In this document: positions 33,946 to 50,879 of the stretch, piece by piece | Layout of the letters: each line of letters begins with the position of its first letter | How positions within the stretch are numbered: the stretch's first letter is position 1 | From: Candidatus Altiarchaeales archaeon | GTDB lineage: Archaea; Altiarchaeota; Altiarchaeia; IMC4; SCGC-AAA252-I15 | Length of the DNA stretch: 64,000 bases | NCBI GenBank assembly: GCA_014727915.1 | Contig: WJMO01000011.1 | Location: forward strand, 21,466 to 85,465 | Direction of reading: 5' to 3' | Program-made: the position numbers and the translations under genes | Notes under the pieces: model-generated | The model's input: only the letters and a program-made list of their open reading frames with translations | What the model was told of the DNA's origin: nothing | The model's database searches: none

Positions 33946-36900
33946 ATGAATCCGATAGTTCGGCCTGACAGAAAGAGCAAGATACCGGAGGTAGCCGCCG
34001 TTCTCCTCGTCCTTTCAATGCTCTCCCTCTACTTCATGGGCTCCGGGATAACGGGTTATTCGGTCGCCTCCAACATCTACCACAGCGACAGCGTCGATAT
34101 CGCCTTGACGGGGAGAAGCATAGCTGACGTCACGCTCAAGTCGAAGCCCCTGTCCCTGCGGGTGTCGGGTTATGCGCTGGGCGGGGATGCGGTGGACATC
34201 TTCCTGAAATCCGGCGATGACTGGCTGCTGATAGCGAACGCCTCCTCGATGGAGGAGGTGGAACCTGACCTGGACGAGGACATATCGGAGGTGGTTTCGC
34301 TGATCAACTCCACCGCAGGAGTTTCCGAGGAGATCCGGACCCGCCTGGACTACGCCGGCAACAGCTCATGGGACGCGGACAACGACGGCCGGGAGACCAT
34401 GCAGTCCGCGATAGACTTCACCGTCGAGAACACGGTCTTCACAGGCGACTTCGATGAGGATAAGCTCTGCACTGTATGGGAGGTCTACTCAGTGTACTCC
34501 GGGAACCTGACCGAGATGTGCTATGGAAACGAGGACTGCTGCCTCATATACGGGCTTTCAGCCGCTCCGGAGAGCAGTTGGGACGACAAGTTCTACCTGC
34601 CCTACGGCAGGTACAGTGCGCTGGAGAAGAACGTGGTGGGTGCGAAGGTCGTCTACGCCGACGTCGACCTCTCCCTTGAAAGCCAGGCCTACACCATCTA
34701 CCGGGGCGGGTGGGACTTCAAGAAAGCCATGTTCTACGTTCCAAAGTTCAGGTTCACCAGCGAATGCCTGGAAACATGCTCCCTCAAGAACGGTTCAAGG
34801 GATGCTTCCATAATGGCTGTCGTCGGCGAGCACATAAAGCTATACCTCGACTCCGTAGAATACGTTGGGGAGGGTTTGGGGGGTGTTAACTACTCCTTCG
34901 CGGGCATAAGGAACCTCAATGTGTCGGTGTCGAACAAGGAGGGGGATCCCGTCGGCCATTACCTCTTCACATCAGACGGGGAGACGGTGGACTTGAAGCT
35001 GAGCTCTGAGCACATGGCAGCGGACCTGCAGTCCTCCGTGATGGTCATAACCTCGCCGGTAGAGTTGCCTGAGGACCCCATTCGTAAGACCTACTACAAG
35101 GAAGAGCCTGCGTCGACGACCGTCGCATCCGAGGTTGTCATATACGGGTTGAGGAACGCCCCCGGCGCCGTTGAGGCGGTGTTCGACGACGTCTCCGACG
35201 CCAGCGTGCGCACGGGCGTTGCCGCCTTGACCGAGGGTTTGGAGTTCGATAGCATGACCGTCACCCTGCCCAGGTACGGTGGGGTGACTGTCGTATCAGA
35301 GTGCGTGGACTTCAACAGGGAAGAGTTCAGATGCCTTCTGTGGGAGCCCTACACCTTCAACTTCACATCGACAGATTGGAACGTGTCCTTCACCTCTGAC
35401 CACAGCGGAGTATACGCTGGAGTGAATGTCAGCGTCGTCGACTACATAGTAGAATATGGAAACACGACGGTCGTGGGCGCTAGGACCGAAGGCGACGTCG
35501 TGACGTGGTCCACTAGTATAGGCACTCAATACAGCGAGTCTCTCGAGTTCACCGCACTGTTGGAAGTCCCCGACTATGCCGAGAACATATCCATCGTCGA
35601 CGACAAGACAGGGTTGGACCTTGACTTCGAGGATGTTTCAACGGAGGGGTCGGGTGTCAAGACATTGGAGGTGATGTTCCGGGGCAGCGGAGAATACACC
35701 ATCTACTACATAACATCAGGGCCTTTGAAGGCAGAGCACGCTCCCGTGGAGGAAGGCGGGCTGCTGACCAAGAGGGTCGATATCACCAGCATAACCCCCT
35801 ACGAGGATTTCATCATATACTCTCAGGCCGAGAATGCCAAAGCATCGAGGATACGGCTTTTGGAGGTTTTGGACGGCCGCAGCGTGGACATAACCGACGA
35901 ACCCCGATTCAACGTCTCCCTCGAGGACGTCGACGGCGACGGTGGCGTGGACTGGGTGTATTGGCTGCTCGCAGAAGGCGGCAACCGGACCTTCGACCTC
36001 GTCATCGACAACAGGGAGAAGATCATGAACTGGACCAGCGAGTATGTGAGGACCTACCGGTTATCCGACGATGATTACCTTTCTGAGGTGTCAGTGGTTC
36101 CCGTCCAATACGAGGGTGAAAGCGGTTGGGTGGAATATGATACTCTGCTGGTGGACAGCGGCAGGTCAGGCTACGACCTCAGATCCTCCGGCGCCGAATA
36201 CACCGCGTACTTCAGCAGGTCATCATATAAGCCGGTCAGGGTAGAATACGACGGCGAATACGTTGACTCCACGCCAGCGGACGCTAACGGTGTTTCCGCC
36301 CTGGTGAGCGGGGACACCATCGCATACTATGGCATATGGGCTGGTGTGGACCTCTATTACACTGTGACTCCCGGCAGGCTTGTCATGGAAGCTGTGCTAT
36401 TGAACGGGTCCAGCCAGCCCAGGCTCCCCTACCAGTTGGATGTACCCCGAACAAGGGAGCTCAGGGAAGACGGCAGGGGCGGATTAGGAGTCTATGACGG
36501 GGAGGGCAACCGCCTTTTCGGCGCGGTGCAGGCCTATGCGGTTGACTCTGTGGGACGTCGGGCGGAGGTCCAGGGCGGACTTACAGTCAAAGGCCGGGAC
36601 TACGTACACACGCTAGTATTGGACGAGGACTACTTGGAAGATGTGGTGTATCCCGTCTCTGTTGTTCAGGCCTGGGATGTCGGGGTTGCGGTGCCTTCGC
36701 TCGTGGGTGACGCGACCGAGGACGGGATGCACTCTAACACCTCGTCAATCATACTCGGATCAGTCGGCGATGACGTCTTCCGCGGCTACGCCGACTTCAA
36801 CGTCGGAGCGTTGGAGGATTGGATGACATTGACCGGTTTGAAGCTGTCATTCAACGTTGAGAGTCCGCTGTCAGGTTGTGATAACTGCTCTTGCGTCGTC

Positions 36901-38883
36901 AATCACATGGGTGGTTCGGCGGCTGGTTACCTGTCCACGGGCGGGGGGGACATACACTGGGACATAGGCAACGGAACATCATACGGCAGCGAACCCACAT
37001 GCGACGTGGCTGGCGCGAAGGAGGTCGACCTCGGCTTCAGAGGCGAGCGCGCGCTGTCTGAGAGCATGGGTTCGGGATTGTTCACCGTTGGCATCGTGTC
37101 ATCCGCAGAATATGTTGAAGGCGGGGGCGGAGTCCTCACCTCAACGGACGGGTCAAGGGGCGAAGGGCTGAGGCTTTCAGTCCAGTGGACGAGGGGCACC
37201 ACGACCACCCTCCCTTACCTGTACCTGGATGACATCTCAGATATGCAGTCCAGCAGGCGGTGCGCCTACGATGAGGGTGGCAGAAGGTACCACTGTACTT
37301 CGAGGGATATCATCGTGAACGGGACGGTCGATCTACTGGCGGTTGGGGAGAACAGCAGCCGGAACGCTGACTTCAAAGCGGACGGTAATTTCACAATAGT
37401 CGAGGGCGGAGCATTGCGGTTGGCTGGCAGGAACCTATCATGGGCTGGCAGCCACGGGATAGGGCAGCCGGACGGCGGAGACCTCACAGTCGAGGCGGGG
37501 GAGATAACAGTAGATGGGCTGTTGGACGTGAGCGGCGGCTCATACTCTTCGAAGACTTACAGCATGAATGCAGGCGACTCAGGTTCCATAACCTTGAGGG
37601 CTTCCGGGCATGTGACGGTCCTTGGCTCTATCGTAGGCGTCGGAGGTGACGTGGACGTTGAGAACTTCGAGGGCGACTTCGGGGGGAGGGGCGGTACTGT
37701 GGAGGTCATGTCAGGGAATTCAAACGTTTACTTGGGTGATGTGAGGTTGGATGCTGGCGTCTCCAACAACCAGCCCGGCCTTGATGGGGGCTCCCTCGGG
37801 GTGGAGGCCTCTGGCAGCGTCATCATCTCAAGGTTCTCGGCGGCTGGCAGCCTCTCCCAGTATGACAGCGGCGGCGATGCTGGCAGCCTATCTGTGAGGT
37901 CTGTCAATGACATAGAAGTCGGTTGTGTGAACGTGTCGGGCGGTTTTGGCGGGCTCGGAGGCGGAGGAGCGGGGGGGCTCGTGTCCTTGGAGTCTGACTT
38001 CGGGGACATAAGGCTGACCTGCGACTTCCATGGTGTTTCAGGCGGGTCTAACACCGGCTTCACCGGCCGCGCCGCGAATCTCACTTTCATGGCGCTCGGA
38101 GGTGACGTGGACTTGGACAACATAACGTTCTACCTCTACGGCGGGTCTGACGTCGGCGAGGGCGAAGGCGGTGACGGTGGATCTCTCACACTCTACGCTG
38201 CCGATGCGCTTTTGGGCTATGGTCTCAACCTCTCTGGTGGTTCTTCGGCGGGGGGGACCGGCGGCGACGGCGGAAGGGCGAGGGTCGAGTACTGCTGGGA
38301 TCATAGGAGCGCATCCTACGAGGATGTCAGAGGGGGTCCGGGGCCGTTGTATGATGGTGTTAACGGTTCCGTGACTTTGGTGTCTCAGCCCAGCTGGTGC
38401 ACGGTCGCGTCCATCACCACCACGACTACGACGTTGCCGGAGCCCATCACGGTTTCGTTGAGGGACCGGGGTAGGATGGCTGAGATGGGCTTGAAGTTCA
38501 CTGACCGGGATGGCAATGAGCTGGCGGGCTTGCCAGGGGACAGGAAGGTCCAGATCAGGGATAACGCCGGTAAGAGGATAATGGAGTTCACAGTGACGGG
38601 CGAGTTCAACCTCACATCCTTGGTGGCGACCACCTTGGACGACCGGGTCTTTGTGGACTTCGAGAGGTCAACGGGCGTGGAATTGGAGCATTCCATCTTC
38701 ATAGACGCGAGCGGCAAGCGGGGGGCGTATATCTGCCCGAACGCGGAGAGGATTAACGAGGTCTACTATGGCTGTCCGGGCATGGTGGTCTTCTACCACA
38801 TCGAGTGCATTCAGGGGTCTGCCAAGCAGGGCCTGACATGCGACGTTCACAAGGGCGATTACAGGATAAGCGGATTAACATGA
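33946..38883 (+). CDS. Giant secreted acidic multidomain adhesin-like protein, part 1
   Basis: N-terminal TM + ITGY motif; Cys-rich modules; WapA-N-like region (about 36040-36670); DNRLRE-like domain; Gly-rich GG.GG beta-helix-like region; Thr linkers; ends ICP.A...EV...C...YRISGLT*. Confidence 0.75.
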   Translation: MNPIVRPDRKSKIPEVAAVLLVLSMLSLYFMGSGITGYSVASNIYHSDSVDIALTGRSIADVTLKSKPLSLRVSGYALGGDAVDIFLKSGDDWLLIANASSMEEVEPDLDEDISEVVSLINSTAGVSEEIRTRLDYAGNSSWDADNDGRETMQSAIDFTVENTVFTGDFDEDKLCTVWEVYSVYSGNLTEMCYGNEDCCLIYGLSAAPESSWDDKFYLPYGRYSALEKNVVGAKVVYADVDLSLESQAYTIYRGGWDFKKAMFYVPKFRFTSECLETCSLKNGSRDASIMAVVGEHIKLYLDSVEYVGEGLGGVNYSFAGIRNLNVSVSNKEGDPVGHYLFTSDGETVDLKLSSEHMAADLQSSVMVITSPVELPEDPIRKTYYKEEPASTTVASEVVIYGLRNAPGAVEAVFDDVSDASVRTGVAALTEGLEFDSMTVTLPRYGGVTVVSECVDFNREEFRCLLWEPYTFNFTSTDWNVSFTSDHSGVYAGVNVSVVDYIVEYGNTTVVGARTEGDVVTWSTSIGTQYSESLEFTALLEVPDYAENISIVDDKTGLDLDFEDVSTEGSGVKTLEVMFRGSGEYTIYYITSGPLKAEHAPVEEGGLLTKRVDITSITPYEDFIIYSQAENAKASRIRLLEVLDGRSVDITDEPRFNVSLEDVDGDGGVDWVYWLLAEGGNRTFDLVIDNREKIMNWTSEYVRTYRLSDDDYLSEVSVVPVQYEGESGWVEYDTLLVDSGRSGYDLRSSGAEYTAYFSRSSYKPVRVEYDGEYVDSTPADANGVSALVSGDTIAYYGIWAGVDLYYTVTPGRLVMEAVLLNGSSQPRLPYQLDVPRTRELREDGRGGLGVYDGEGNRLFGAVQAYAVDSVGRRAEVQGGLTVKGRDYVHTLVLDEDYLEDVVYPVSVVQAWDVGVAVPSLVGDATEDGMHSNTSSIILGSVGDDVFRGYADFNVGALEDWMTLTGLKLSFNVESPLSGCDNCSCVVNHMGGSAAGYLSTGGGDIHWDIGNGTSYGSEPTCDVAGAKEVDLGFRGERALSESMGSGLFTVGIVSSAEYVEGGGGVLTSTDGSRGEGLRLSVQWTRGTTTTLPYLYLDDISDMQSSRRCAYDEGGRRYHCTSRDIIVNGTVDLLAVGENSSRNADFKADGNFTIVEGGALRLAGRNLSWAGSHGIGQPDGGDLTVEAGEITVDGLLDVSGGSYSSKTYSMNAGDSGSITLRASGHVTVLGSIVGVGGDVDVENFEGDFGGRGGTVEVMSGNSNVYLGDVRLDAGVSNNQPGLDGGSLGVEASGSVIISRFSAAGSLSQYDSGGDAGSLSVRSVNDIEVGCVNVSGGFGGLGGGGAGGLVSLESDFGDIRLTCDFHGVSGGSNTGFTGRAANLTFMALGGDVDLDNITFYLYGGSDVGEGEGGDGGSLTLYAADALLGYGLNLSGGSSAGGTGGDGGRARVEYCWDHRSASYEDVRGGPGPLYDGVNGSVTLVSQPSWCTVASITTTTTTLPEPITVSLRDRGRMAEMGLKFTDRDGNELAGLPGDRKVQIRDNAGKRIMEFTVTGEFNLTSLVATTLDDRVFVDFERSTGVELEHSIFIDASGKRGAYICPNAERINEVYYGCPGMVVFYHIECIQGSAKQGLTCDVHKGDYRISGLT

Positions 38884-41204
38884 GTTCAATGGCGAAGTTA
38901 TTGCACGGGAGGAAGGGCAGGCTGGCGTTGAGAGGTTCAGCCTACACGCTGATGTTCCTGGTATTGGTTGCGTCAGTCTACTTCACTCCTGAAGCAAGCT
39001 CCCAGGGTGGCGGTCCCCTGCCTCCTGGCTCCGGGTTCGGCGGGGGTTGGAGCATGGACACTTCGATAACCCAGTCGAACGCGAGCTTCTTCGGGGAGCG
39101 GCTTACCGTCAATTCGGGCCATAGGATATCGTTCGTCGACGACGTCAACCGCGACGGCTATGACGACATGATAATCGGCGCCTACAACGCCTACGGCGAC
39201 CCCGTCGGTTCTAAGAGGGGCGAGGTCTATCTTGTCCTGGGCAGCTGGGAGTGGCAGATGGACACGAACCTCAGCGACGTCAACGCCAGCTATGTCGGGG
39301 AGGCCGACGATGATTATGCGGGGTTTGCTCTCTCCTTTGCGGGGGACGTGAACGCAGACGGATTCGCGGACTTCCTGATAGGCGCCTATGGAAACGACGA
39401 TCCTGAGGATACCGGCGGTCAGAGCTACCTTATACTGGGCCGTGCTGAGGGTTGGAGCATGGACTCTGTTCTGACGTCCGCCAATGCGAGCTTCTTCGGG
39501 GAGCGGTCATACCAACGCTCAGGCCATGGAGTGGCAGGGGTCGGGGATGTGAACGGCGACGGCTTCGACGACTTCATAGTGTCGGCGTCATACGACAGCG
39601 AACACGGGACCAACATAGGACAGGTGTACCTTATAATGGGCAGACCCGAGGGTTGGAGCATGGACACTAACCTGAGCGAATCGAATGCGAGCTTCTTTGG
39701 CGAAGCTAACTCCGACTATGCGGGACATCATCTTTCATTGGCGGGAGTTGGTGACGTGAACTCTGATGGCTTCGACGACTTCCTCATAGGATCAGTATAC
39801 AACGACGAATTCGGGCCTAACACAGGACAGTCGTACCTCATCCTTGGGAGGCAGTTCGGGTGGGCTATGGACACGAACCTGAGCATGTCCAACGCCAGCT
39901 ATTACGGCGAAGCGACAGAAGACTACTCCTGTGTCACAGCTTCCGGTGCGGGAGACCTGAACGCCGACGGCACATTGGACTTCCTGGTGGGCGCATACTA
40001 TAACAACGAAAACGGAGAGTATTCCGGCCAGTCTTATGCGCTGTTCGGAGACAGCGGAGCCTGGACCCTGGACAACAATCTGAGCAAGTCCAATGCCAGC
40101 TTCAGGGGGGAGCGGCAGCAGAGCTATTCTGGCTGGCATCTCTCGGCCGTCGACGACGTGAACGGCGATGGCTTCGACGACTTCATGGTCGGAGCGTACC
40201 TGGACCTCGAACACGGATCTGACTCCGGCCAATCGTATATGCTCTTCGGCAAGAGCCGGGATTGGAATATGGACACAGGCCTCGGCGATTCCAACGCCAG
40301 CTTCTACGGGACAGAAACAAGCCCACATGGCGGCTCCTACTCCGGTTACGCGCTCACGGGCGTGGGGGACATGAACGCGGACGGGTTCTTCGACTTCTCC
40401 ATCGGAGCCTACAGGGAGAGCGAGCACGAGCCCCTATCCGGCCAGACTTACCTTTTCTACGGGGACAACAGCAGCTACGTGCCGATGACCATAACCTCCG
40501 TGTTGTTGGGGAATGAGAGCGATTACAGGCCGGCGGGGAACTATGTCATCGTCCCAGGATATGACAGCAGATTATACGTGAACGTGACCGCGACCGGCGG
40601 CAACGCGAACTTCCGGGATGTGGTGCGGGTGTGGGTTAACAGCAGCTCCGCGTCTAAGCCCATCAAGCTCATGTGCGTGGAGACCGGATTGGACACCAAC
40701 GAATACCACGGGGTCTTCAGCGTCCGCAAGGGAGCCAGCATACAGCGGTTCCGGAAGGTCCAGGTCGCGAACATGACCAACATAACCGTGGCGGGAGTAT
40801 ACGCGGAGGACGTAAATGACGAGATACGGGTGTTCTACGGTTTGGAGAATACTAATCCCGTATTCGGCTACTACATGTACCAGCCTAATGAGACGTTCTC
40901 CAACGACACCTACATAAGCTCACCCACCGGCGCGGACACCAACTACGGGAACAAGGAGGAACTGAAGGTCGGAAGATATGATTCGAGCAACATCTACCGG
41001 AGCCTGCTCCGCTTCGACATATCCCTGATACCCCCCGAGGCCAACGTCACACGTTCGATACTCAGCCTATACCTGTACAACGCCACGTACAGCATAGACG
41101 ACCGCCCCTACAACCTCACAGGCTCATGGCTGGAGTCCCAGGTAACCTGGAACAACCGGCAGACGGGCACGGCATGGGGTAGCGCAGGCGGAGACTACGT
41201 CTGA
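38880..41204 (+). CDS. Secreted 7-bladed FG-GAP (integrin-alpha-like) propeller protein ending in half a DNRLRE-like domain
   Basis: Start ATG 38880 (ATGA overlap); signal peptide; seven (G/D)DxNxDGxxD repeats, each preceded by W.(M/L)D.....NAS(F/Y).G; C-terminal DTYI...TNYG..L.VG..RSLLRFD...W.E..VTWNN...W...GGDYV*. Confidence 0.85.
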   Translation: MSSMAKLLHGRKGRLALRGSAYTLMFLVLVASVYFTPEASSQGGGPLPPGSGFGGGWSMDTSITQSNASFFGERLTVNSGHRISFVDDVNRDGYDDMIIGAYNAYGDPVGSKRGEVYLVLGSWEWQMDTNLSDVNASYVGEADDDYAGFALSFAGDVNADGFADFLIGAYGNDDPEDTGGQSYLILGRAEGWSMDSVLTSANASFFGERSYQRSGHGVAGVGDVNGDGFDDFIVSASYDSEHGTNIGQVYLIMGRPEGWSMDTNLSESNASFFGEANSDYAGHHLSLAGVGDVNSDGFDDFLIGSVYNDEFGPNTGQSYLILGRQFGWAMDTNLSMSNASYYGEATEDYSCVTASGAGDLNADGTLDFLVGAYYNNENGEYSGQSYALFGDSGAWTLDNNLSKSNASFRGERQQSYSGWHLSAVDDVNGDGFDDFMVGAYLDLEHGSDSGQSYMLFGKSRDWNMDTGLGDSNASFYGTETSPHGGSYSGYALTGVGDMNADGFFDFSIGAYRESEHEPLSGQTYLFYGDNSSYVPMTITSVLLGNESDYRPAGNYVIVPGYDSRLYVNVTATGGNANFRDVVRVWVNSSSASKPIKLMCVETGLDTNEYHGVFSVRKGASIQRFRKVQVANMTNITVAGVYAEDVNDEIRVFYGLENTNPVFGYYMYQPNETFSNDTYISSPTGADTNYGNKEELKVGRYDSSNIYRSLLRFDISLIPPEANVTRSILSLYLYNATYSIDDRPYNLTGSWLESQVTWNNRQTGTAWGSAGGDYV

Positions 41205-41241
41205 TAACCTGCTTTTATACTGTTTATGTATATAGTAGAAC

Positions 41242-41661
41242 ATGACAGACCATCACCCTCATAGGCAGATGAGGATACCCATAATCCTGATATTGACCCT
41301 TGCGGTGATAATACTATCCGCTCTACTTATGGTGTCCTGGAACCGGCAGAATGTCCAGTGCACGGTACCCAGCAACCTGAAGGTACAATACGACCAGCCT
41401 AGAGTCTCGCAGTTGGACGGGACTTACTGGGCGTGCAGCACCTGGGTTTGCAACCGGCTGATGACACCCGCCGAGTGGATTAACAGGTACTGTTTCGTGC
41501 AGGAACAGGATACCGTATGCGGCATCCGGGACCAGGCAGGCAACAACTACGTTGTGCCCTTGAACCAGCTGAACGTCTCCGCCATCCAGGAGTGCGCAGA
41601 GTTCCTCTGCCTCCAGGAATCCCTGGTAAGGAACGCCTCCCACATACTCCCAGCACCCTGA
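41242..41661 (+). CDS. Small Cys-rich membrane-anchored/secreted protein
   Basis: N-terminal TM, 7 Cys; preceded by TTTTATA at about 41213. Confidence 0.65.
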   Translation: MTDHHPHRQMRIPIILILTLAVIILSALLMVSWNRQNVQCTVPSNLKVQYDQPRVSQLDGTYWACSTWVCNRLMTPAEWINRYCFVQEQDTVCGIRDQAGNNYVVPLNQLNVSAIQECAEFLCLQESLVRNASHILPAP

Positions 41662-41731
41662 AAGCCAACCTCTTTTATTCCTGGAAAGCCAAATAACCTA
41701 TAATATATATTCTACTACTAGGTTGTAGGCC

Positions 41732-43648
41732 ATGGATGAGGGGATAACACTTAAAATAACCTTGAAACAGGTATTACTGGTTTCCATCCTCGGTGTTTTT
41801 CTATTGGCTCCCGTCATCTCACAGCAGGACACGCCAGGCCTCCGGGAGGAGGATGGCTTGAATCATGTGTGGTTGAAGTACCGGCTAGGGCCGGGAGTCC
41901 GCAGGAACACATTGGTTGAAGACACTGGATATTCCCTCACATATAATGCGCGGCCGTTGATGAAGCCGTTGGTTGTGAATGAGGGCGGGCATCGGGTGGA
42001 CTTGATGATCGTTAACAAGCCACCCTTTGTGGATGATGAGAAGGGCTGGTTCAACCTGTCCGAGCCCAGCGCCGAGGTCGCGTGGGCTGCGTTGACGTTG
42101 AACCTCAGCTACAACAACGCCACCATAATCTTCGAAAGAACACTCGACTTCACCAACACCTCGGTGTTCAACATCACACGGGACGTTAACCTCAGCTACA
42201 ACTGGGTGGAGATAGACACGGCCACGCTGAAGCCGCTCAACAGGCACGCGAAGATAATACTCTCCAACCTCACATTCAACGCCGTGAAGATAGAGAAGAA
42301 CTACGCCCACTGCACAGACTGCACCGTACTCAGCTACCAAGGGGGCAGGGCGGTGTTCAAGGTCGTGCCCACGCTCCTCAACTACCGGGCGGTGGAGCTC
42401 GCAGGATGGATAAACTGGGACCTCATAGACCTAACGAGCGCGTGGATAGGCAGCACAGACAACAACCTGGGCGTCATACTGGTCGGCGAAGAAGGAGAGG
42501 ACGGCACCCTAAGGCAGTACTACAGCTCCAACGACACCACATACGGGTACTACCCGAAATTGGAGGTCAACTACACCCTCCGCGACCAGACCTTCTACAA
42601 CAACGAGACCCTCACCGACGTCTGGGACCTGGACAACTACTTCCACGACCCAGAGGGCATGACCCTCTCCTATACGCAGTCAAGCGACCACCCCAACATA
42701 CAGGTGACCATCGGCGGCGACAACACCGTTGACATACAGGCGATAGACAACTTCGCAGGAACCCAGTATGTGGTGTTCACAGCCGACGACGGGCTTTCAG
42801 GAGTGGCCACAAGCAACAACGTCACACTCACGGTATTGAACGGGATAACGACCACCACGACCACTCTGGCAAACTACGATCCCATCGTGTTCGAGGTGAA
42901 GGGCCCCGACCCGGTCGCGTTGTTTGTGGGCACAGTCAAGAACGTCTCCTACAACGCCTCAATATTCGACGAGGACGGATGCGCCGAGATAGAGGCCGCA
43001 CAGGGCATATTCTGGGACACTACCACAGCAGTCCACTCAGACACTGCCGACGACAACGAACTATACAAGAACACCAGCTGCGACATCTCATGCACAGGCG
43101 ACGACGGCATAGTCAAGTGCGGGTTCAACCTGAAATACTACGCGCAGCCGTCGGCCGTCTGGGCGATCAACATATCCGTCCGCGACGACGACAACAAGTG
43201 GGCCCACAACACCACCACAGACGTGGAAGTCCAGGACCTGGTGGGCGTCAACGCCGTAGAAGGCTCCATAGACTTCAGCGCCACCGAAGGCGGCAGCATA
43301 GACCTGGGCCAATCCAGCTCGGACGACACCGTGCTGACGGTGCAGAACTACGGCAACGTCATACTGGACATGCTAGCTTCTGGCTCGGACCTAGCATGCG
43401 GCGTCGGCAGCATAGGAGTCAACAACGTAAAGTATGACTCACAGTCCGGCCAGGCCATAGGCAGCATGTGCCAGCTCACAGACGACACAGCAGACACATG
43501 CCCCGCGTTGGAGGCCAGCTACGACCTGGCCAAGACCATATCCGACACGCCCCAGGAGGACCTCATATACTGGAAGATACAGATACCCGCCTCCGGTGTC
43601 GGCGGCTCCTGCTCGGGCACGGTGACCATAACAGGTGAGAAATCATGA
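41732..43648 (+). CDS. Secreted protein: surface domain + C-half of DNRLRE-like domain + Ig/cadherin-like domain + two-domain putative fibre module
   Basis: Signal peptide; WINWDL..L..AW....N.GVIL...R.YYSS....PKLEV.Y; DLDNYF.DPEG..L.Y Ig-like; C-terminal ~260 aa aligns by eye with 46147-47136 and 47247-48239. Confidence 0.75.
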   Translation: MDEGITLKITLKQVLLVSILGVFLLAPVISQQDTPGLREEDGLNHVWLKYRLGPGVRRNTLVEDTGYSLTYNARPLMKPLVVNEGGHRVDLMIVNKPPFVDDEKGWFNLSEPSAEVAWAALTLNLSYNNATIIFERTLDFTNTSVFNITRDVNLSYNWVEIDTATLKPLNRHAKIILSNLTFNAVKIEKNYAHCTDCTVLSYQGGRAVFKVVPTLLNYRAVELAGWINWDLIDLTSAWIGSTDNNLGVILVGEEGEDGTLRQYYSSNDTTYGYYPKLEVNYTLRDQTFYNNETLTDVWDLDNYFHDPEGMTLSYTQSSDHPNIQVTIGGDNTVDIQAIDNFAGTQYVVFTADDGLSGVATSNNVTLTVLNGITTTTTTLANYDPIVFEVKGPDPVALFVGTVKNVSYNASIFDEDGCAEIEAAQGIFWDTTTAVHSDTADDNELYKNTSCDISCTGDDGIVKCGFNLKYYAQPSAVWAINISVRDDDNKWAHNTTTDVEVQDLVGVNAVEGSIDFSATEGGSIDLGQSSSDDTVLTVQNYGNVILDMLASGSDLACGVGSIGVNNVKYDSQSGQAIGSMCQLTDDTADTCPALEASYDLAKTISDTPQEDLIYWKIQIPASGVGGSCSGTVTITGEKS

Positions 43649-44841
43649 TGAAGAGAGTAATGACCGTGCTGGTGGTGTTGGCTGCTATGGCATGCACTGC
43701 CAGCGCAGTCACCCTCGGAGCCAGCCCCGCCGAAATATCCTTCATGAACGCGACCAGGGGTAGCAGGCTATCCACATACCTCACACTCAGCACGTTGGAC
43801 AACGACCTCGACTGCAGCATGGAAGCCACCGGCCAGGTCAAAGAATGGACATACCTGGGCGAGCCGTCGTTCACCATGGACCGGGGCCAGCGGACCGTCC
43901 CCGTGAGGTTCAACATACCTGAGGCAACCCCCAACGGCATATACACGGGCAGGATACTCATCACAGCCTCTCCCAAAAAAGCCGGAGTGAAAGGCACCGG
44001 CGCGGTGGTCGGAGCCGGTGTATCCGTGAAGGTCACCGTTGCGGTAGGGGGTTCGGAGAGCCTATGGTATAGGGTCATGCGGGTGAACGTCCACAACACC
44101 AACGAAGGACAGCCCATAAAGGTCCGGCTGACATTGAAGAACAGTGCAGCCCAGACGATAACGCCCAAGATAGTGCTCAAATCCCTGGACCACGACAGGA
44201 AGAACGTCTTCACAGCCTCCACATTCTCTGACCGCAGGGTCGAGGGACTCTCAAGGAAGACCATCGACCTGACCCTCCCATCCGGCTCGATGCCGCCCGA
44301 CCTTTACTGGATGAGCCTCAAAGTCGAAGTGGACGGGGAGAGCATATGGGACAGCAACGAAGCATTCTATGTGCTGCCCGAGAACAGGTCCGAGTTCGAG
44401 ACGGTGAAGGTCGTTGGCTCCCTGGACTCGGCGAGGATAGAGAACGCCAACCTCACAGTCGGCGAGCAGCTCATAGTCCGAACGACATTCAGCAACAAGG
44501 GCGAAGTCCCCCTGGCAGCCAAGATGCATGTCGACTTCATGAAAGACGGGAAGCTGGTGAAGTCCCTGGAGACCCCGAACGAATACTATGAGGTCGGCGG
44601 CTCAGGGGATTTCGCCGTAGAATACCAGCCGCCAGAACCGGGAGACTACACTGCGAGGATATGGGTGGAGTACGCGGGCATGAGAACCGCAGTAAGGGAG
44701 GCCAAGGTGAAAGTCTGGCACTACGTGCCCCTGCTGTTCAGGCTCGACCTAAACTTCTACCTGATAGCGCTACCCGTAGTCGCCATAATAGTACTATGGA
44801 TAATACTATACTATAGGAAGTACAATGTGCGAGATGAATAA
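43645..44841 (+). CDS. Membrane-anchored triple Ig-like protein, paralog 1 (DUF916/DUF3324-like architecture)
   Basis: Signal peptide ASA-VTLGASP; PNG.Y.G.I.I.A.P....G..VGAGV..KV; N.G motifs; C-terminal TM + basic tail. Confidence 0.7.
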   Translation: MMKRVMTVLVVLAAMACTASAVTLGASPAEISFMNATRGSRLSTYLTLSTLDNDLDCSMEATGQVKEWTYLGEPSFTMDRGQRTVPVRFNIPEATPNGIYTGRILITASPKKAGVKGTGAVVGAGVSVKVTVAVGGSESLWYRVMRVNVHNTNEGQPIKVRLTLKNSAAQTITPKIVLKSLDHDRKNVFTASTFSDRRVEGLSRKTIDLTLPSGSMPPDLYWMSLKVEVDGESIWDSNEAFYVLPENRSEFETVKVVGSLDSARIENANLTVGEQLIVRTTFSNKGEVPLAAKMHVDFMKDGKLVKSLETPNEYYEVGGSGDFAVEYQPPEPGDYTARIWVEYAGMRTAVREAKVKVWHYVPLLFRLDLNFYLIALPVVAIIVLWIILYYRKYNVRDE

Positions 44842-44876
44842 AACGATATTAACTATAAAGACCAAGACTTAACACG

Positions 44877-46124
44877 ATGAGATCAAGGCTCCTAACCCTG
44901 GTGGTGGCTCTGTTCATGTTCTCCAGCACAGCTTCTGCGGTCGCCATAGGCGCGGGACCATCCACGATAGACTTCGGGAAGATGGTGAAGGGCGGGTACG
45001 CTGAGAAGGAGATAACCGTGAGCACGAGCGGCGAGGAGGACCTCACCTGCACCATCGAATTCACGGGCGACATGGCGGAGTGGATGAGCATCGAAGGCGA
45101 GGACGACATGAAATTCGACCTCCCATCGGACAGCAGGTACAAGCTGAACGCGATAGTGCGACCCCCACCGAACGTCCCCAACGGAAGGTACGGGGGTGCC
45201 ATATACATCAAGGCCGCTCCCACAAGCTCCATGCAGGACGGAACAGGACTTGTCGTAGGGGCAGGCGTGAAGATACAGGTGGGCGTCGAGATAACCGGAA
45301 AGGAGGACATAGGGTTGATTGTTGAGTCCGTCCGCGTGGAAGACACGGAAGTGGAGTACCCGATAAAGGTCCTCGTCGACATCAGGAACTCTGGCAACGT
45401 CCAGCTCAAGCCGAAGTTCAAAGTCGACATAAAGGACCAGGCAGCCAAGGTGCTGGTCTCTGGAGAATACGACCGGTCCGAGATCCTGCCCACCAGAAGG
45501 GAGAACATAGAATTCACACTATCCTCGGAGGACTTTGACGCAGGAAAGTACAACGCCGAAGTCAGCATATACGCCCGGGACAAGCTAATGCACAACCAGG
45601 TCGTGGCGTTCAACATGCTCCCTGAGGGATCATGGAGCATAAGCGGAGAGCTAGGAGAGATAACGCTGTTGCCCGAGTCCTCAAAGCCCGGGGAGCTGGT
45701 GAAAGTAGTCTCCGAATTCAAGAACAGCGGCGAAACCAAGGTCGCCGCGAAATTCAAGGGCGAGGCCATGCTAGACAACAAGATCGCAGGCTCCCTGGAG
45801 AGCGATGAGCTGACCGTGGCGCCAGGCAAGTCCGTACAGTTGGAATCATATTATACGGCCCAAAACCCGGGCAACTACGTGATACGCGGATACGTCCTAT
45901 ATGAGGGCGAGAAGACAGAGACAAAAGGCGTGGTTTTGGTCGTTGAAGGAGGAGGTTCAGCCCAGAACTACCTCATATACGTTGTCGCAGCGGTTCTATT
46001 GTTGGTTGTAGTTGGAGTCTACAAGTTTGTCAAAGGAGGAGACGACGAATATGGTGGCGGCTACTATGACGGAGGCTACCAATACCCGAATGATGGATCC
46101 GGCTACCCTGAAGGCCGACAGTAG
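44877..46124 (+). CDS. Membrane-anchored triple Ig-like protein, paralog 2
   Basis: ASA-VAIGAGPSTIDFGKMVKGGYAE; PNGRYGGAIYIKAAP; C-terminal TM and Tyr/Gly-rich tail. Confidence 0.72.
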   Translation: MRSRLLTLVVALFMFSSTASAVAIGAGPSTIDFGKMVKGGYAEKEITVSTSGEEDLTCTIEFTGDMAEWMSIEGEDDMKFDLPSDSRYKLNAIVRPPPNVPNGRYGGAIYIKAAPTSSMQDGTGLVVGAGVKIQVGVEITGKEDIGLIVESVRVEDTEVEYPIKVLVDIRNSGNVQLKPKFKVDIKDQAAKVLVSGEYDRSEILPTRRENIEFTLSSEDFDAGKYNAEVSIYARDKLMHNQVVAFNMLPEGSWSISGELGEITLLPESSKPGELVKVVSEFKNSGETKVAAKFKGEAMLDNKIAGSLESDELTVAPGKSVQLESYYTAQNPGNYVIRGYVLYEGEKTETKGVVLVVEGGGSAQNYLIYVVAAVLLLVVVGVYKFVKGGDDEYGGGYYDGGYQYPNDGSGYPEGRQ

Positions 46125-46146
46125 GCTCGGCCAAGGATATAATGCT

Positions 46147-47136
46147 ATGGACTCGAAGCCCCCAGGATGCTTGGATGTACGGTATGCGGTTGCGGTGGCC
46201 GTGCTCGGTTTTCTGCTGGCATACGCATCCATATCGACTCCCGTCGAGGCAGCAGGGTCTTCTGTAGTGCTTACAGTGGGCATCCTGGATACCAGGCCTA
46301 ACGTCACAGACATCCAATGCTGTTTCAAGGACTCCGACTCCAGCACATGGGGCGACTGCGGGATAAACCATGAGTATTCCATGACCGGCGGCGAGTCCTA
46401 TGACCTGATGTGCAACTTCACGGTATTCGACGGTAATGGCTGGCAGGACATGATAGACGGGTGGGTGAACGTCACCTGGCACCACTCCTCGGTGGGCTGG
46501 GATTCCCCCCCAACGCTCGACACATCCTACGTCAACCAGTCCTGCAGGAACGTCACAGGCTCTGAGGGCGGCACTGACGTGGTTTGGGAGTGCCAGATCC
46601 AGCGGATACGGTATTGGGCTGACGCGGGAGAGTGGAATCTTGTCGTCAACCTCTCGGACGGGGAGAACATAGGGAACCCGGGCCTGGGAACGGTCACATT
46701 GGAGAATGTTACCTCCATATGGCAGTCTTCAGCCATAAACTTCGGGGCCATGCAGCCGGGGGCGACAGGCTCCCAGTACCAGTCAGGCACCGTCAACGTG
46801 AACGCCACCACCAACAACACGGGCAACACAGCCCTAGACCTTCAGGTGGACGGGGTCGCATCGACGGTAGACTGCACCATAGGGTCAATACCCATCGGAA
46901 ATGTCGAATATGACGTATTAAAGGGCAGATCCATGGATCTGGCATGCGGTCAGCTTACGTCCTCCGGGGAATGGGATGTGGACTGCGATAACGTTGCTCT
47001 GGAGGACTGCTCAGGGACCTGCCCGAACACGGAGAAGATAACATATACTTACTGGGGTATCACAATACCCGGCAGCGGGATAGGGGGCGTATGCTCAAGG
47101 ACTATAATATTCTCGGCAGTGCAGGCTTATCCTTAA
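46147..47136 (+). CDS. Secreted Cys-rich two-domain putative fibre subunit A
   Basis: Probable start ATG 46147; signal peptide ending VEA; D.NGWQD, N.SC, IRYWA..G.W, INFG, NNTGN..LD, C.IGSI, YWGI.IP..G.GG.C, terminal Pro. Confidence 0.72.
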   Translation: MDSKPPGCLDVRYAVAVAVLGFLLAYASISTPVEAAGSSVVLTVGILDTRPNVTDIQCCFKDSDSSTWGDCGINHEYSMTGGESYDLMCNFTVFDGNGWQDMIDGWVNVTWHHSSVGWDSPPTLDTSYVNQSCRNVTGSEGGTDVVWECQIQRIRYWADAGEWNLVVNLSDGENIGNPGLGTVTLENVTSIWQSSAINFGAMQPGATGSQYQSGTVNVNATTNNTGNTALDLQVDGVASTVDCTIGSIPIGNVEYDVLKGRSMDLACGQLTSSGEWDVDCDNVALEDCSGTCPNTEKITYTYWGITIPGSGIGGVCSRTIIFSAVQAYP

Positions 47137-47246
47137 TAGTATCCTACCTGCCATTTTTATACTGGACAAACCAATAGTTAAACAATATCATCAATGGCCT
47201 GAATTATCATGTTTTTGGTTCGATGTGGTGAGTTGGATAAATCTAA

Positions 47247-48239
47247 ATGGTGTTAGATATGGCGAAAGACGGAAGATCTAAGGTTGTGGTTTTGGCGTTT
47301 GTTGTTGGATTATGTGCTGTTGCTATCCTGATCGGCTCTGAAGTGAAGGAAGTGGATGCCGTGTCAGTCACATACCAGGTTTCAGTGTCAGGGGCCCGGC
47401 CCAGCATAAGCGCTGTCAGGTGCTGCTTCAAGGAGTCTGACGTAGGCGCATGGGCTGACGGCGACTGCCACACAACCGGGGAATCATATACGCCCCCCTC
47501 TGCCGAATACTATGATGTGATGTGCAATTTCACGGTTTCTGACAGCAACGGCTGGCAGGACATGACAGACGGATGGGTCAACGCAACCTGGCACCACACG
47601 AATGTCAACTGGGACACTGACTGGGACTTCGACACATCATACGGCAATGGGTCATGCAAGAACGTCACAGACCTTAAGGGCGGCGAGGACATAGTCTTCG
47701 AATGCCAGTTCCAGAACATCCGGTACTGGGCCAACGGCGGAGGATGGAAGCTGCTGGTCAACTCATCGGACGGGTCAGACCTGGGAACGCCCTCGTCGAC
47801 GAGCTTCACCGTAACCAACTCGACCTCCATATGGCAGACGGCCACCATCGACTTCGGGTCCATGGCGGTCGGAGAGACCGGTTCCGCGGGGAACACCGGG
47901 AACGCTGACGTGGATGCGAAGACCAACAACACGGGCAACACGGTCATAGACCTGGAGGTGAACGCCGGTGCGGCGACGATGGACTGCACCATCAACAGCA
48001 TAGGAGTGCGGAACATATCCTATGACGAGACGGACGACACGGCAATCGGAAGCGCCTGCGGGACACTGGAGGAGGCTGCAGACTGGGACTGTGCCGCAAT
48101 CAACCTAAACGACTGCGAGGACGGATGCGCGGGCGCAACGGCATTGGACTACACCTACTGGGGGATAAGGATACCCTCGGGTGTAGGTGGCTCGTGCACG
48201 CTCTCGGTGACGTTTACGGGGACGCAAGCAACACCCTAA
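47247..48239 (+). CDS. Secreted Cys-rich two-domain putative fibre subunit B
   Basis: Signal peptide ending VDA; clear paralog of 46147-47136 with the same motifs; ends GGSCTLSVTFTGTQATP. Confidence 0.75.
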   Translation: MVLDMAKDGRSKVVVLAFVVGLCAVAILIGSEVKEVDAVSVTYQVSVSGARPSISAVRCCFKESDVGAWADGDCHTTGESYTPPSAEYYDVMCNFTVSDSNGWQDMTDGWVNATWHHTNVNWDTDWDFDTSYGNGSCKNVTDLKGGEDIVFECQFQNIRYWANGGGWKLLVNSSDGSDLGTPSSTSFTVTNSTSIWQTATIDFGSMAVGETGSAGNTGNADVDAKTNNTGNTVIDLEVNAGAATMDCTINSIGVRNISYDETDDTAIGSACGTLEEAADWDCAAINLNDCEDGCAGATALDYTYWGIRIPSGVGGSCTLSVTFTGTQATP

Positions 48240-48252
48240 ATAGGAGGATAAA

Positions 48253-49479
48253 ATGAAAGAGAAGATAACACTAACGGTCTTGGTGGCGGCTGTATTCATG
48301 GTATTGGCAGGGACAGCATCAGCGGTGACCATAGGCGCAGGACCATCTACCATAGACTTCGGGAAGATGGTGAAGGGGGGCTACGCAGAGAGGGTCATAA
48401 CCGTGAGCACCAGCGGCGACGAAGACCTCACCTGCACCATCGAGCTCACGGGAGACATCGCAGACTGGATGAGCACAGACCAGGGGGACGTTTTCGAGCT
48501 TCCCGCAGACAGCAGGCAGAAGGTGCTGGCCATGGTGGAGCCGCCTGAAGACTCCGAGAACGGCAGATACAGCGGAGCCATATACATAAAGGCCGCGCCA
48601 ACCAGCGAACTGTCGGGTGGGACGGGCCTAATAGTCGGAGCCGGGGTCAAGATAAAGGTGGGCCTTGAGATAACGGACGAGGAGACCGTCTCCTACAAGC
48701 TGTCGGGCGCGTCCGTGTCGGACACCGAGATCGGATACCCGATAAAGTTCACGGCTAACGTCATGAACAACGGTAACGTGGAGGCCAAACCCCAGATAGA
48801 CATAAGGATAATGGACCAGGCAGGCGCTGAGGTGAAGACACACACCCAGGCCGGGTCGGATATACTCCCCACGGTAACCGAGGACGTAGTCGTTGAAGTC
48901 CCGTCGGACGACCTACAGGAAGGCTTCTACCGGGCCAAGGTCATGGTAGGCGATGAAGAGCAGGAGGTGAAGTTCAACATACTACAGCCGGGCACCCTCG
49001 CGGTGAAGGGAGTGCTCAAGTCCCTCTCAGTGAACAAGATGTGGGTAGAGGCCGGGGAGTCGGTGAAGATAGCCGCTGAAGTGGAGAACACCGGCAAGGT
49101 ACTGATAGAGAATGCCAAGTTGACAGCTGAAGTTTACATGATAGACGATAGATACGAGACGGAGAACCTCGTGAAGCCCGTTGAGGGCGCTGAGACATTG
49201 GACGTCCCAGTGGGGCAGACGGTCGAATTGGTGGCGTACTTCACGCCTCCGAAGGCCGGTAGGTACAAGATATACGGGGCTGTCTCATACGAGGACAAGA
49301 AGACCAAGCCCAAGTCGACCATATTGAACGTCCTGCAGGCGCCGAAGGACTACACACTCTACATAGTGGGTGCTGTGGTCGTCGTGCTTGTGGCGCTGTT
49401 CTGGCTGACTAGGCGCGGTGAAGACGGTAGGACACGCAGGTTCAAGAGGATCTGGGGCGACTACCTGCAGATTAAATAG
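48253..49479 (+). CDS. Membrane-anchored triple Ig-like protein, paralog 3
   Basis: AGGAGG RBS; ASA-VTIGAGPSTIDFGKMVKGGYAE nearly identical to paralog 2; C-terminal TM + RR. Confidence 0.75.
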   Translation: MKEKITLTVLVAAVFMVLAGTASAVTIGAGPSTIDFGKMVKGGYAERVITVSTSGDEDLTCTIELTGDIADWMSTDQGDVFELPADSRQKVLAMVEPPEDSENGRYSGAIYIKAAPTSELSGGTGLIVGAGVKIKVGLEITDEETVSYKLSGASVSDTEIGYPIKFTANVMNNGNVEAKPQIDIRIMDQAGAEVKTHTQAGSDILPTVTEDVVVEVPSDDLQEGFYRAKVMVGDEEQEVKFNILQPGTLAVKGVLKSLSVNKMWVEAGESVKIAAEVENTGKVLIENAKLTAEVYMIDDRYETENLVKPVEGAETLDVPVGQTVELVAYFTPPKAGRYKIYGAVSYEDKKTKPKSTILNVLQAPKDYTLYIVGAVVVVLVALFWLTRRGEDGRTRRFKRIWGDYLQIK

Positions 49480-49492
49480 GGGGTTGAGAAAA

Positions 49493-50215
49493 ATGGCAGA
49501 ATTGATAAATACCGGGATACCTGGCGTGGACGAGATGTGCGGAGGGGGAATCCCCGAGTCTGCGGTCGTGATCGTGTCGGGCTCCCCCGGGATTGGTAAG
49601 AGCAACTTTGCAATGCAATACCTCTACAACGGGGTTGAGAAATACAACGAGCCGGGCATATACCTCACGGTTGAGGACGTGCCAGAGAAGGTCAGGGCCT
49701 ATGCCGCAGCGTTCGGCTGGGACCTGGAGAAATACGAGAAGGAGAACAAGCTTGCGATAGTGGCTCAACCCATATTCGGAGAGGAAGAGGAAAAGAAAGG
49801 CAAGAAGAAGGAAGACGCGGGAGAGACCCTTGGAGAGGCGATAGAGCGTATCGGCGCCAAGAGGATAGTGTTGGACTCCGTTACCCTGTTCAAGTACCTG
49901 TTCAAGGATGACATGTCCCGGAGGGTTAACCTGCTGAACTTCATAAAGCAGGTGAAGGACTCCGGCTGCACCACCATGATGGTTGCCGAGCAGCACGAGA
50001 GCACCGGGGACATCACCTACCTGGACGAGCACTTCCTCGCAGACGGCCTCATACTGCTCTTCTGGAGCAGGCACAAGGAGAAGAACGAGCGTTGCTTCAG
50101 GGTCGTCAAGCTCAGAGGCCAGAAGATAAACCCTGACATCAGGCCCATGGAGATAACCGAAAAGGGCATAATGGTCTACCCGACCCAGGTGCCGTTGTCC
50201 CTGGCTGAGAAGTAA
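49493..50215 (+). CDS. KaiC/RAD55-like single-domain ATPase
   Basis: Start ATG 49493; TGIPGVDEM.GGGIP, Walker A GSPGIGKS, Walker B IVLDS, ADG.I.L, R...VVKLRG. Confidence 0.9.
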   Translation: MAELINTGIPGVDEMCGGGIPESAVVIVSGSPGIGKSNFAMQYLYNGVEKYNEPGIYLTVEDVPEKVRAYAAAFGWDLEKYEKENKLAIVAQPIFGEEEEKKGKKKEDAGETLGEAIERIGAKRIVLDSVTLFKYLFKDDMSRRVNLLNFIKQVKDSGCTTMMVAEQHESTGDITYLDEHFLADGLILLFWSRHKEKNERCFRVVKLRGQKINPDIRPMEITEKGIMVYPTQVPLSLAEK

Positions 50216-50282: not shown

Positions 50283-50879
50283 ATGCCCGATACCGAAGAA
50301 AAATCGGATATAGACCTTATACCGACCGCAGACATTGCCCTCAAGAGCGAGAGTCAGATCATAGTCCTGGTGATGCCGGAGGAAGAATACATCGAGCGCC
50401 TTATGACCGTTGTCAGTGACCTGTCAACCCTAGACCATGGTAAGATATGCTATGTCTCACTAAACAGGCCATATGAGTCTTTGAAGAGGATACTCGACAG
50501 GGTCGGCATCGACTCTAGCAACTTCTTCTTCATAGATGCGATAACAAAGACCGCTAAGATACCTGACAAGAGCGATAACTGCGAGTACATATCCTCTCCC
50601 GGGGCGCTGACCGAATTGAGCGTTGCCATCTCCAACTCTATGGAGCACAGGGACTTCAAGTTCATAGTGTTCGATTCGCTGTCAACGCTCCTGGTGTACG
50701 AGTCAGACACTACGATAGCCAAGTTCGTGCATTTCCTGATGGCGAAGGTCCGGGTCGCTGAATGCAGCGCAGTGTTCACCTGCCTGAAGCAGGATGCCAG
50801 CTCAATACTGGTGAAGGACATCAACATGTTCGCTGACAAGGTGATAGACTTAGAGAGGTGGAATATCAGGAAGGGTTGA
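50283..50879 (+). CDS. Degenerate KaiC/RecA-fold protein (no Walker A)
   Basis: YVSLNRPY, FFIDAIT, SP..LTEL, IVFDSLSTLL.Y, F.DKVI. Confidence 0.75.
   Translation: MPDTEEKSDIDLIPTADIALKSESQIIVLVMPEEEYIERLMTVVSDLSTLDHGKICYVSLNRPYESLKRILDRVGIDSSNFFFIDAITKTAKIPDKSDNCEYISSPGALTELSVAISNSMEHRDFKFIVFDSLSTLLVYESDTTIAKFVHFLMAKVRVAECSAVFTCLKQDASSILVKDINMFADKVIDLERWNIRKG

Follow-up and report, generated by a model that had tools for sequence, protein, structure and literature searches.

The window analysed here is a stretch of 64,000 nucleotides (nt) from a Candidatus Altiarchaeales archaeon (GenBank assembly GCA_014727915.1, contig WJMO01000011.1, positions 21,466 to 85,465 of the forward strand), and our subject is a DNRLRE/CBM96 domain whose N-terminal and C-terminal parts are encoded there by two separate genes. 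Both lie in a same-strand run of open reading frames (ORFs) for presumably exported proteins, which continues past ORF3 with proteins of ~400 aa and ~330–370 aa (amino acids). ORF1 codes for an FG-GAP propeller protein ending in the N-terminal part of the domain (the N-half). ORF3 codes for a protein in which a signal peptide is followed by a conserved domain of ~180 aa (domain N), the C-terminal part of the DNRLRE/CBM96 domain (the C-half), an immunoglobulin (Ig)-like domain resembling Big_9, a T-rich linker and two C-terminal Ig-like sandwiches. The gap between the halves amounts to 1,202 nt (41202–42403) and is occupied by a further gene, ORF2, two short AT-rich spacers, and the signal peptide and N-terminal domain of ORF3. 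Positions are collected in Table 1.

Table 1 Features of the locus of the divided domain (positions in the window)
Feature	Position	Strand	Basis or remark
Upstream giant secreted protein, 1645 aa	33946..38883	+	ORF; 4-nt overlap with the start of ORF1
ORF1, 774 aa: signal peptide, seven FG-GAP repeats (propeller), C-terminal N-half of DNRLRE/CBM96	38880..41204	+	ORF, Pfam, NCBIfam
N-half module, ORF1 aa 656–774	40845..41201	+	NCBIfam, local profile model
Tandem stops TGA TAA closing ORF1	41202..41207	+	Sequence
TTTTATA, 23 nt 5' of the ORF2 ATG	41213..41219	+	Like an archaeal TATA box
ORF2, 139 aa: N-terminal membrane helix and outer domain with six invariant cysteines	41242..41661	+	
AT-rich ATAATATATATT, 21–32 nt 5' of the ORF3 ATG	41700..41711	+	Promoter-like by inspection only
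ORF3, 638 aa	41732..43648	+	ORF, Pfam, NCBIfam, models
Domain N, ORF3 aa 47–222	41870..42397	+	No known family
C-half of DNRLRE/CBM96, ORF3 aa 225–283	42404..42580	+	Local profile model, states 108–163
Ig-like domain, ORF3 aa 293–361	42608..42814	+	Weak Big_9 match; colinear with the unsplit protein of genome G007
ORF3 C-terminal region, aa 384–638	42881..43645	+	Modelled as two tandem Ig-like beta-sandwiches
Two ~400-aa CARDB/WxLIP-like proteins, C-terminal membrane helix	43645–44841, 44877–46124	+	

Residues 673–762 of ORF1 match the Pfam CBM96 profile (PF24517) over positions 7–97 of 164, at 52.8 bits against a cut-off of 26, and residues 676–769 (nt 40905–41186) match the NCBIfam profile DNRLRE_dom (NF033679) over positions 2–100 of 164, at 64.3 bits against a cut-off of 34. 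The end of ORF1 also matches the disaggregatase repeat of Pfam over positions 10–99 of 179. The protein stops one residue past a conserved GGDY, where TGA is followed by an in-frame TAA. The rest of the profile is found in ORF3, whose residues 214–280 (from nt 42371) match DNRLRE_dom over positions 100–164 with an E-value of 2.7e-6; orthologues of ORF3 match positions 94–164 of the same profile at 34.3 bits (P0008) and 33.6 bits. The NCBIfam coordinates are therefore complementary, and neither ORF1 nor ORF3 alone contains the whole ~164-position domain. A preliminary description of this DNA, made from the letters alone, had placed the first half of such a domain at the end of ORF1 and the missing half within ORF3, behind a signal peptide of its own and an unrelated domain, with ~1.2 kb and an extra gene between them, and the profile matches bear this out. 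It had also expected the family profiles to fall on complementary halves, which holds for NCBIfam in both proteins and for Pfam in ORF1 but not in ORF3. Apart from a weak match of ORF3 to the Big_9 Ig family, no Pfam family was found above threshold in ORF2 or ORF3.

A local hidden Markov model (HMM) of the domain, built from 11 intact copies from related genomes with all split proteins excluded, divides the domain in the same way: ORF1 covers states 4–94 of 163 and ORF3 residues 225–283 cover states 108–163. On the orthologues the N-halves span states 3–94, 13–94 and 8–95, and the C-halves 104–163, 105–163, 106–163 and 91–163. When the whole of the window's genome was scanned with this model as six-frame ORFs of at least 50 aa, 3 of the 17,417 ORFs were matched at E ≤ 10, namely ORF1 (1.8e-19), ORF3 (1.7e-7) and one intact copy. 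This confirms that the complementary halves are real, far beyond chance. The intact copy, the sole one in this genome, lies near the N-terminus of an 819-aa frame (contig C12, 427520–429976), the remainder of which looks metallophosphatase-like by eye, with GNHD-type motifs. In the order as a whole, intact copies of DNRLRE/CBM96 occur in surface proteins of 18 of 49 genomes. The ORF3 orthologue P0008 is named 'DNRLRE domain-containing protein' in the public source though it holds profile positions 94–164 only, a name that hides the split and serves as a practical warning for annotation.

The division is found in five independently assembled genomes from two sister genera: that of the window (G000) and G001, G004, G013 and G016, the last four of which, among 41 related genomes, carry full-length orthologues of ORF3 at 46–55% identity. 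The break point, the small Cys-rich gene ORF2 and the architecture of ORF3 are common to all five. Each of the four relatives holds one strong N-half (E-values of 3e-32 to 2e-60) and one C-half (6e-25 to 8e-38), which, with the window's genome, makes the occurrence of the halves 1:1 throughout. In G000, G004, G013 and G016 the protein with the N-half ends one residue past GGDY; the N-half gene of G001 runs off a contig end, and the codons for its final ~31 residues are on a second contig, ahead of ORF2 and ORF3. The order N-half gene, ORF2, ORF3 is kept on one contig in G016 and can be reconstructed across the contig junction in G001. In G004 an unrelated gene in convergent orientation comes after the N-half gene, and ORF2 and ORF3 are on another contig with unrelated genes upstream; in G013 ORF2 accompanies the N-half gene and ORF3 lies at a different place.

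Neither half shows decay, as the preliminary description had noted for the window. In eight ORF3-type proteins drawn from ~5.8 billion protein clusters, 19 of the 59 columns of the C-half are invariant, and with a mean pairwise identity of 0.62 it is as conserved as the neighbouring domain N (0.64), Ig domain (0.61) and C-terminal region (0.46). Compared with the N-half of the window, the four complete N-halves show 42–54% identity, and across genera the halves and ORF2 are conserved at 40–60%. We used amino-acid conservation per region in place of the ratio of non-synonymous to synonymous substitution rates because, at a protein identity of ~50% between orthologues, saturation of synonymous sites is to be expected. 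Both halves are thus kept under selection and co-occur in the five genomes, and related genomes keep the same split. At the nucleotide level (window 41187–41204), the 12 nt coding for GGDY are identical in all four genomes compared, and the 18 nt that run through the ORF1 stop codon agree fully in three genomes from the two genera, with surrounding codons ~50–60% identical. This identity may reflect codon preference or a constraint at the level of nucleotides.

An unsplit form exists in another genus of the family. In genome G007 (contig C79) one frame is colinear with ORF1 followed by ORF3: its residues 322–482 align with ORF1 residues 657–773 (E-value 1e-12) and residues 501–922 with ORF3 residues 224–633 (E-value 1e-46), leaving ~18 residues between the two blocks. 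The domain is intact in this protein and rich in insertions (local HMM states 24–162). The gene for the protein lies a few kb from a topoisomerase I gene that is also adjacent to the N-half gene of the window and to those of G001, G004 and G013, and downstream of the unsplit gene are the same two gene types as at the split locus, which together make it the positional counterpart of the divided genes. From this unsplit syntenic homologue it follows that the split came about through an insertion that supplied a stop, ORF2, and a second start followed by a signal peptide and an additional domain. In a topoisomerase tree the two split-bearing genera form one clade, with a support of 100 in the Shimodaira–Hasegawa-like approximate likelihood ratio test, and G007 is placed outside it. 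The tree, a quick maximum-likelihood analysis of a single gene with midpoint rooting, covers 18 of the 21 family genomes, three having given no match, and is consistent with a single origin of the split. The topoisomerase I frame is 849–894 aa long in four of the five genomes of one genus (G018, G020, G004 and G013) and 670–740 aa long elsewhere, and in G004 and G013 the alignment with the protein of the window falls into two segments, which suggests that the enzyme of those four genomes carries an insertion of ~180 aa.

The insert as seen in the window consists of the stop, ORF2, the spacers, the ORF3 signal peptide and domain N. ORF2 starts with a hydrophobic helix and has six cysteines that are invariant in five homologues; it matched no family in Pfam or NCBIfam, and the protein atlas held no usable relative. 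Its profile was found in 6 of the 49 genomes of the order, strongly in the five split genomes (E-values of 3e-46 to 2e-65) and weakly in one more (3e-4). The strong matches fall in exactly those genomes that have the split, which ties ORF2 to it; that ORF2 acts as an assembly helper is our guess. Domain N matched no known family either, and the protein atlas gave only template-modelling (TM) scores below 0.5 to generic beta-sandwich domains of glycosidases. It stands alone, ahead of a T-rich linker, in one protein of another genus (genome G010), and is therefore an independent domain.

What precedes the N-half differs from genome to genome. A profile of the four N-halves gave 7,199 matches at E ≤ 0.001 among 1.84 billion representative proteins, most of them ordinary internal DNRLRE domains. 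Among the best 150 the match stands at the very C-terminus in eight, seven of which end in GGDY and one residue and one in GGD. The parts in front of such a C-terminal N-half are FG-GAP propellers in proteins of 710–883 aa, giants of 2200–2600 aa and shorter forms. In the split genomes the head is an FG-GAP propeller in G000 and G013 and a giant of 2200–2600 aa in G001, G004 and G016. By eye, a subtilisin-like protease motif can be made out in the giants P0011 and P0012, and our guess is that the segment before the N-half in most of the proteins other than the FG-GAP ones is LamG-like. The 1645-aa protein encoded just upstream of ORF1 is 44% identical over 1490 columns to P0023 (to about its first 1470 residues), the single 2200-aa N-half-bearing protein of a relative in the same genus. 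ORF1 shares with P0023 only the N-half, at 47% identity over 117 residues, and the N-half is likewise the one region that it has in common with the other proteins of 2200–2600 aa in relatives. There is a second fission or a cargo swap at the ORF1 locus, and the comparison indicates that the head has been rebuilt and even split again with the N-half tag kept. P0023 resembles the 1645-aa protein and ORF1 in one, but its middle holds other domains and not an FG-GAP propeller. The giants also contain a weak, divergent DNRLRE-like stretch (window 36700–37000, as estimated from the alignment; P0023 residues 914–1008), 27% identical to the N-half of ORF1 and with weak profile matches in G001 and G004; in the window's genome it falls below detection by the intact-domain HMM.

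The two pieces were modelled as a complex from the 119-aa N-half (4-row alignment) and ORF3 residues 36–292 (8-row alignment). Three runs gave an interface score (ipSAE) of 0.85, 0.86 and 0.83, against at most 0.01 in three controls; at least 90% of contacts are common to the runs, and the predicted local distance difference test (pLDDT) value of the partner is at least 83. The mark applied to ipSAE was reached by 116 of 157 solved complexes and by 2 of 215 mismatched pairs, a calibration that is rough here, where our own alignments were used. The predicted interface comprises ~300 contacts between N-half residues 5–95 and ORF3 residues 223–285, with domain N taking part at a few residues only (183–186 and 199–207). 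The C-half segments 226–231 and 277–280 both contact N-half residues 69–76, and 249–251 contact 52–55. Given this pattern of contacts, the strands of both chains would alternate within the sheets and not form two sub-domains side by side. To the predictor, then, the two pieces still resemble a single domain. The solved CBM96 domain, TM6-N4 of the alginate lyase Dp0100, is a two-sheet beta-sandwich; its authors ascribe the making and sustaining of the fold to segments with strand b1 at the N-terminus and strand b10, helix eta2 and strand b11 at the C-terminus (PMC9971899). With the fold-constituting segments so placed in that account, independent folding of one half is unlikely. The same paper names residues of a basic groove through which the solved domain binds alginate, and states that the ligand of most DNRLRE domains is not known.

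The last 255 residues of ORF3 gave a confident model of two tandem Ig-like sandwiches (mean pLDDT 86.5, 13-row alignment). The fold search with this part returned only generic tandem Ig-like structures at TM scores of 0.2–0.4 (integrin legs, Fab light chains, CfaE/CfaB and RbmA), which point to no specific fibre family; the description of ORF3 as a fibre-module protein thus finds no support in a specific match. A sequence-profile search of the PDB with the ORF3 alignment gave 0 matches at E ≤ 1. When longer, fused relatives of ORF3 residues 214–380 were sought in the 5.8-billion-protein set, one weak match was found, P0159; as the method is word-based, this counts as weak evidence. The two-Ig-domain unit also forms the body of small secreted proteins, both in relatives and downstream in the window (46012–47136 and 47247–48239), where they lie within the continuing run of 43645–49479.

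The CARDB/WxLIP-like pair is conserved downstream of ORF3 and is also found downstream of the unsplit gene in relatives; its members are possible membrane anchors of the assembly. A third such protein of ~400 aa, again with a C-terminal membrane helix, is encoded at 48253–49479, and two genes for KaiC-like ATPases (49418–50215 and 50283–50879) come after the surface-protein run. The locus looks like one for the assembly of a surface structure. The TATA-box-like TTTTATA ahead of ORF2 has similar motifs at the equivalent place in G013 and G016. A terminator-like scan of 41000–41900 gave no intrinsic terminators, and a scan of 40800–42700 no inverted repeats and only short direct repeats of the kind expected by chance.

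Taken together, these results probably reflect an old gene fission by insertion inside a beta-sandwich, the halves of which would co-fold after export. The ancestor would have been a secreted surface protein composed of a variable head, the DNRLRE/CBM96 beta-sandwich, an Ig domain and two further Ig-like domains. In the common ancestor of the two genera (Candidatus Altiarchaeota) a segment of ~1.2 kb would have entered right after GGDY, bringing with it the stop, the membrane-anchored Cys-rich ORF2, a second start codon, the signal peptide behind it and domain N. From then on the head protein (ORF1 in the window) would have ended with the N-terminal ~95 positions of the profile, and the base protein ORF3 would have carried the C-terminal ~60. 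The two are presumably exported separately, after which the halves would co-fold into a single beta-sandwich with interdigitated strands and so hold head and base together non-covalently, with ORF2 or domain N perhaps serving as an assembly helper or cap. In the preliminary description an insertion and a complementation of fragments stood as alternatives; the evidence fits both together, with complementation as the modelled part.

Several points weigh against this account. The NCBIfam score of ORF3, 27.6 bits, is under the curated cut-off of 34, and the Pfam CBM96 profile misses ORF3 and three sub-fragments of it even at E ≤ 10. The local HMM was tested on small databases, and the intact copy on contig C12 that it recovered was in its training set. 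Thirteen of its states (95–107, about one strand) are in neither half, so that a rebuilt fold would differ from the intact one or borrow from domain N. AlphaFold2 on full-length ORF3 (8-row alignment) gave a mean pLDDT of 40.5, which is uninformative for domain N and the C-half. Split halves of a known fold can also pass in a complex prediction by their likeness to solved intact domains, and the alignments were shallow. Finally, G018 and G020, which belong to the split-bearing clade (81% and 70% complete, in 260–320 contigs), showed none of the parts.

Some of these points would suit a history in which an old and genuine fission left halves that have ceased to meet, each being re-used alone: the N-half might, for example, be a C-terminal tag for oligomerisation or anchoring, directed at ORF2, the envelope or itself, and the C-half might pack on domain N. 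Domain N stands directly before the C-half and touches the modelled partner at just those few residues, the 13 uncovered states belong to neither product, and the genes are unlinked in G004 and G013. Yet the residues with high scores in the intact-domain model are preserved in both halves, the halves occur 1:1 in each of the five genomes, the complex model reaches 0.85 against 0.01 for the controls, and half a sandwich with interleaved strands is unlikely to be stable alone, by extension from what PMC9971899 says of the fold. We therefore regard separate re-use as unlikely. The fission with co-folding may be taken one step further, to a natural two-part coupler in which the ~120-residue N-half is a tag whose cargo is exchanged and the C-half a socket on a conserved base; domain N, ORF2 or both would then hold the socket open or catalyse assembly. 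We offer this extension tentatively and with some doubt. If it were true, the pair would be nature's non-covalent equivalent of the engineered split-domain couplers, and with it a cell could place heads that are very large, or that can be exchanged, on a surface structure assembled beforehand.

The preliminary description had also raised the possibility of a rejoining by rearrangement of DNA or RNA, and we have extended this to any route by which the halves become continuous again: DNA rearrangement, trans-splicing of RNA, recoding, or protein splicing by a split intein. A gene does stand between the halves here, as in the fractured genes described in PMC2677866, but ORF2 is a conserved protein gene, and Pfam and NCBIfam gave no match to an intein or Hint family in any of ORF1, ORF2 and ORF3. 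ORF1 ends directly past GGDY and one residue with tandem stops, and ORF3 begins with its own signal peptide and the conserved 180-aa domain, which in a rejoined product would sit inside the sandwich. Two of the five genomes do not have the parts linked: in G004 the N-half gene is on another contig than ORF2–ORF3, and in G013 ORF3 is apart from ORF2. The scan of 40800–42700 revealed no flanking repeats. Rejoining in any of these forms is highly improbable. The draft state of the window's genome, which is in 13 contigs, might suggest a chimera of assembly, or else a recently broken pseudogene, were it not that the same break point and gene order recur in independently assembled genomes, on one contig in G016 and across the junction in G001, and that the halves and ORF2 have kept their identity across genera; an artefact or a pseudogene is scarcely credible.

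Gene fissions usually fall between domains, and functional fissions within a domain are rare. What is unusual here is the intradomain fission of a small extracellular beta-sandwich, with an export signal for each half and with an extra domain and a lineage-specific gene between the parts. No published description of such a split extracellular domain was found in a literature search that left out most subscription journals. If the halves do co-fold, half-domains can survive export unfolded and meet outside the archaeal cell, and the two form a natural, genetically compact coupling pair with a tag of ~120 aa, a socket of ~60 aa and a helper. Co-folding would also explain how these uncultured archaea mount different heads, an adhesin propeller or giants (two of them with the subtilisin-like protease motif), on one surface base.

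The DNRLRE domain was named in PMC2447325 and CBM96 in PMC9971899. The two halves together match the family profile from 2 to 164; the described cases are sandwiches of ~160 residues continuous in one protein, whereas the domain reported here is divided after profile position ~95–100. In two-chain fungal fatty acid synthases the fission sites also fall within domains and the chain termini intertwine to rebuild them (bioRxiv 10.1101/336578). The likeness lies in a single-gene precursor split inside a domain, with a reassembly that in our case is predicted by modelling. Unlike the cytosolic chains of the fungal enzymes, both chains here have their own signal peptides and would co-fold outside the cell, and an additional gene and an additional domain arrived with the fission. 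Interruption of a gene by inserted DNA that carries another gene is reported for fractured genes (PMC2677866) and for the insertional fission of cox2 (PMC5374615). There, as here, gene-bearing inserted DNA leaves complementary halves. Unlike those fractured genes that use split inteins, the genes at this locus code for extracellular structural proteins, and since ORF1–ORF3 lack intein signatures covalent rejoining is not expected.

In donor-strand complementation, known from pili of the chaperone-usher, TasA and archaeal bundling types, one strand is donated between like subunits and a polymer is built. The system described here would resemble these pili in that an incomplete extracellular beta-sandwich is completed by another polypeptide after export. 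It differs from them in that several strands come from each of two unlike proteins (profile positions 2–100 and 100–164), which make a 1:1 pair. Among couplers, SpyTag/SpyCatcher is man-made and covalent, and cohesin and dockerin are each complete folded domains. By analogy the present pair would share with both a tag on various cargoes that is captured by a socket on a base protein, but the tag and the socket are in this case the two halves of one fold.

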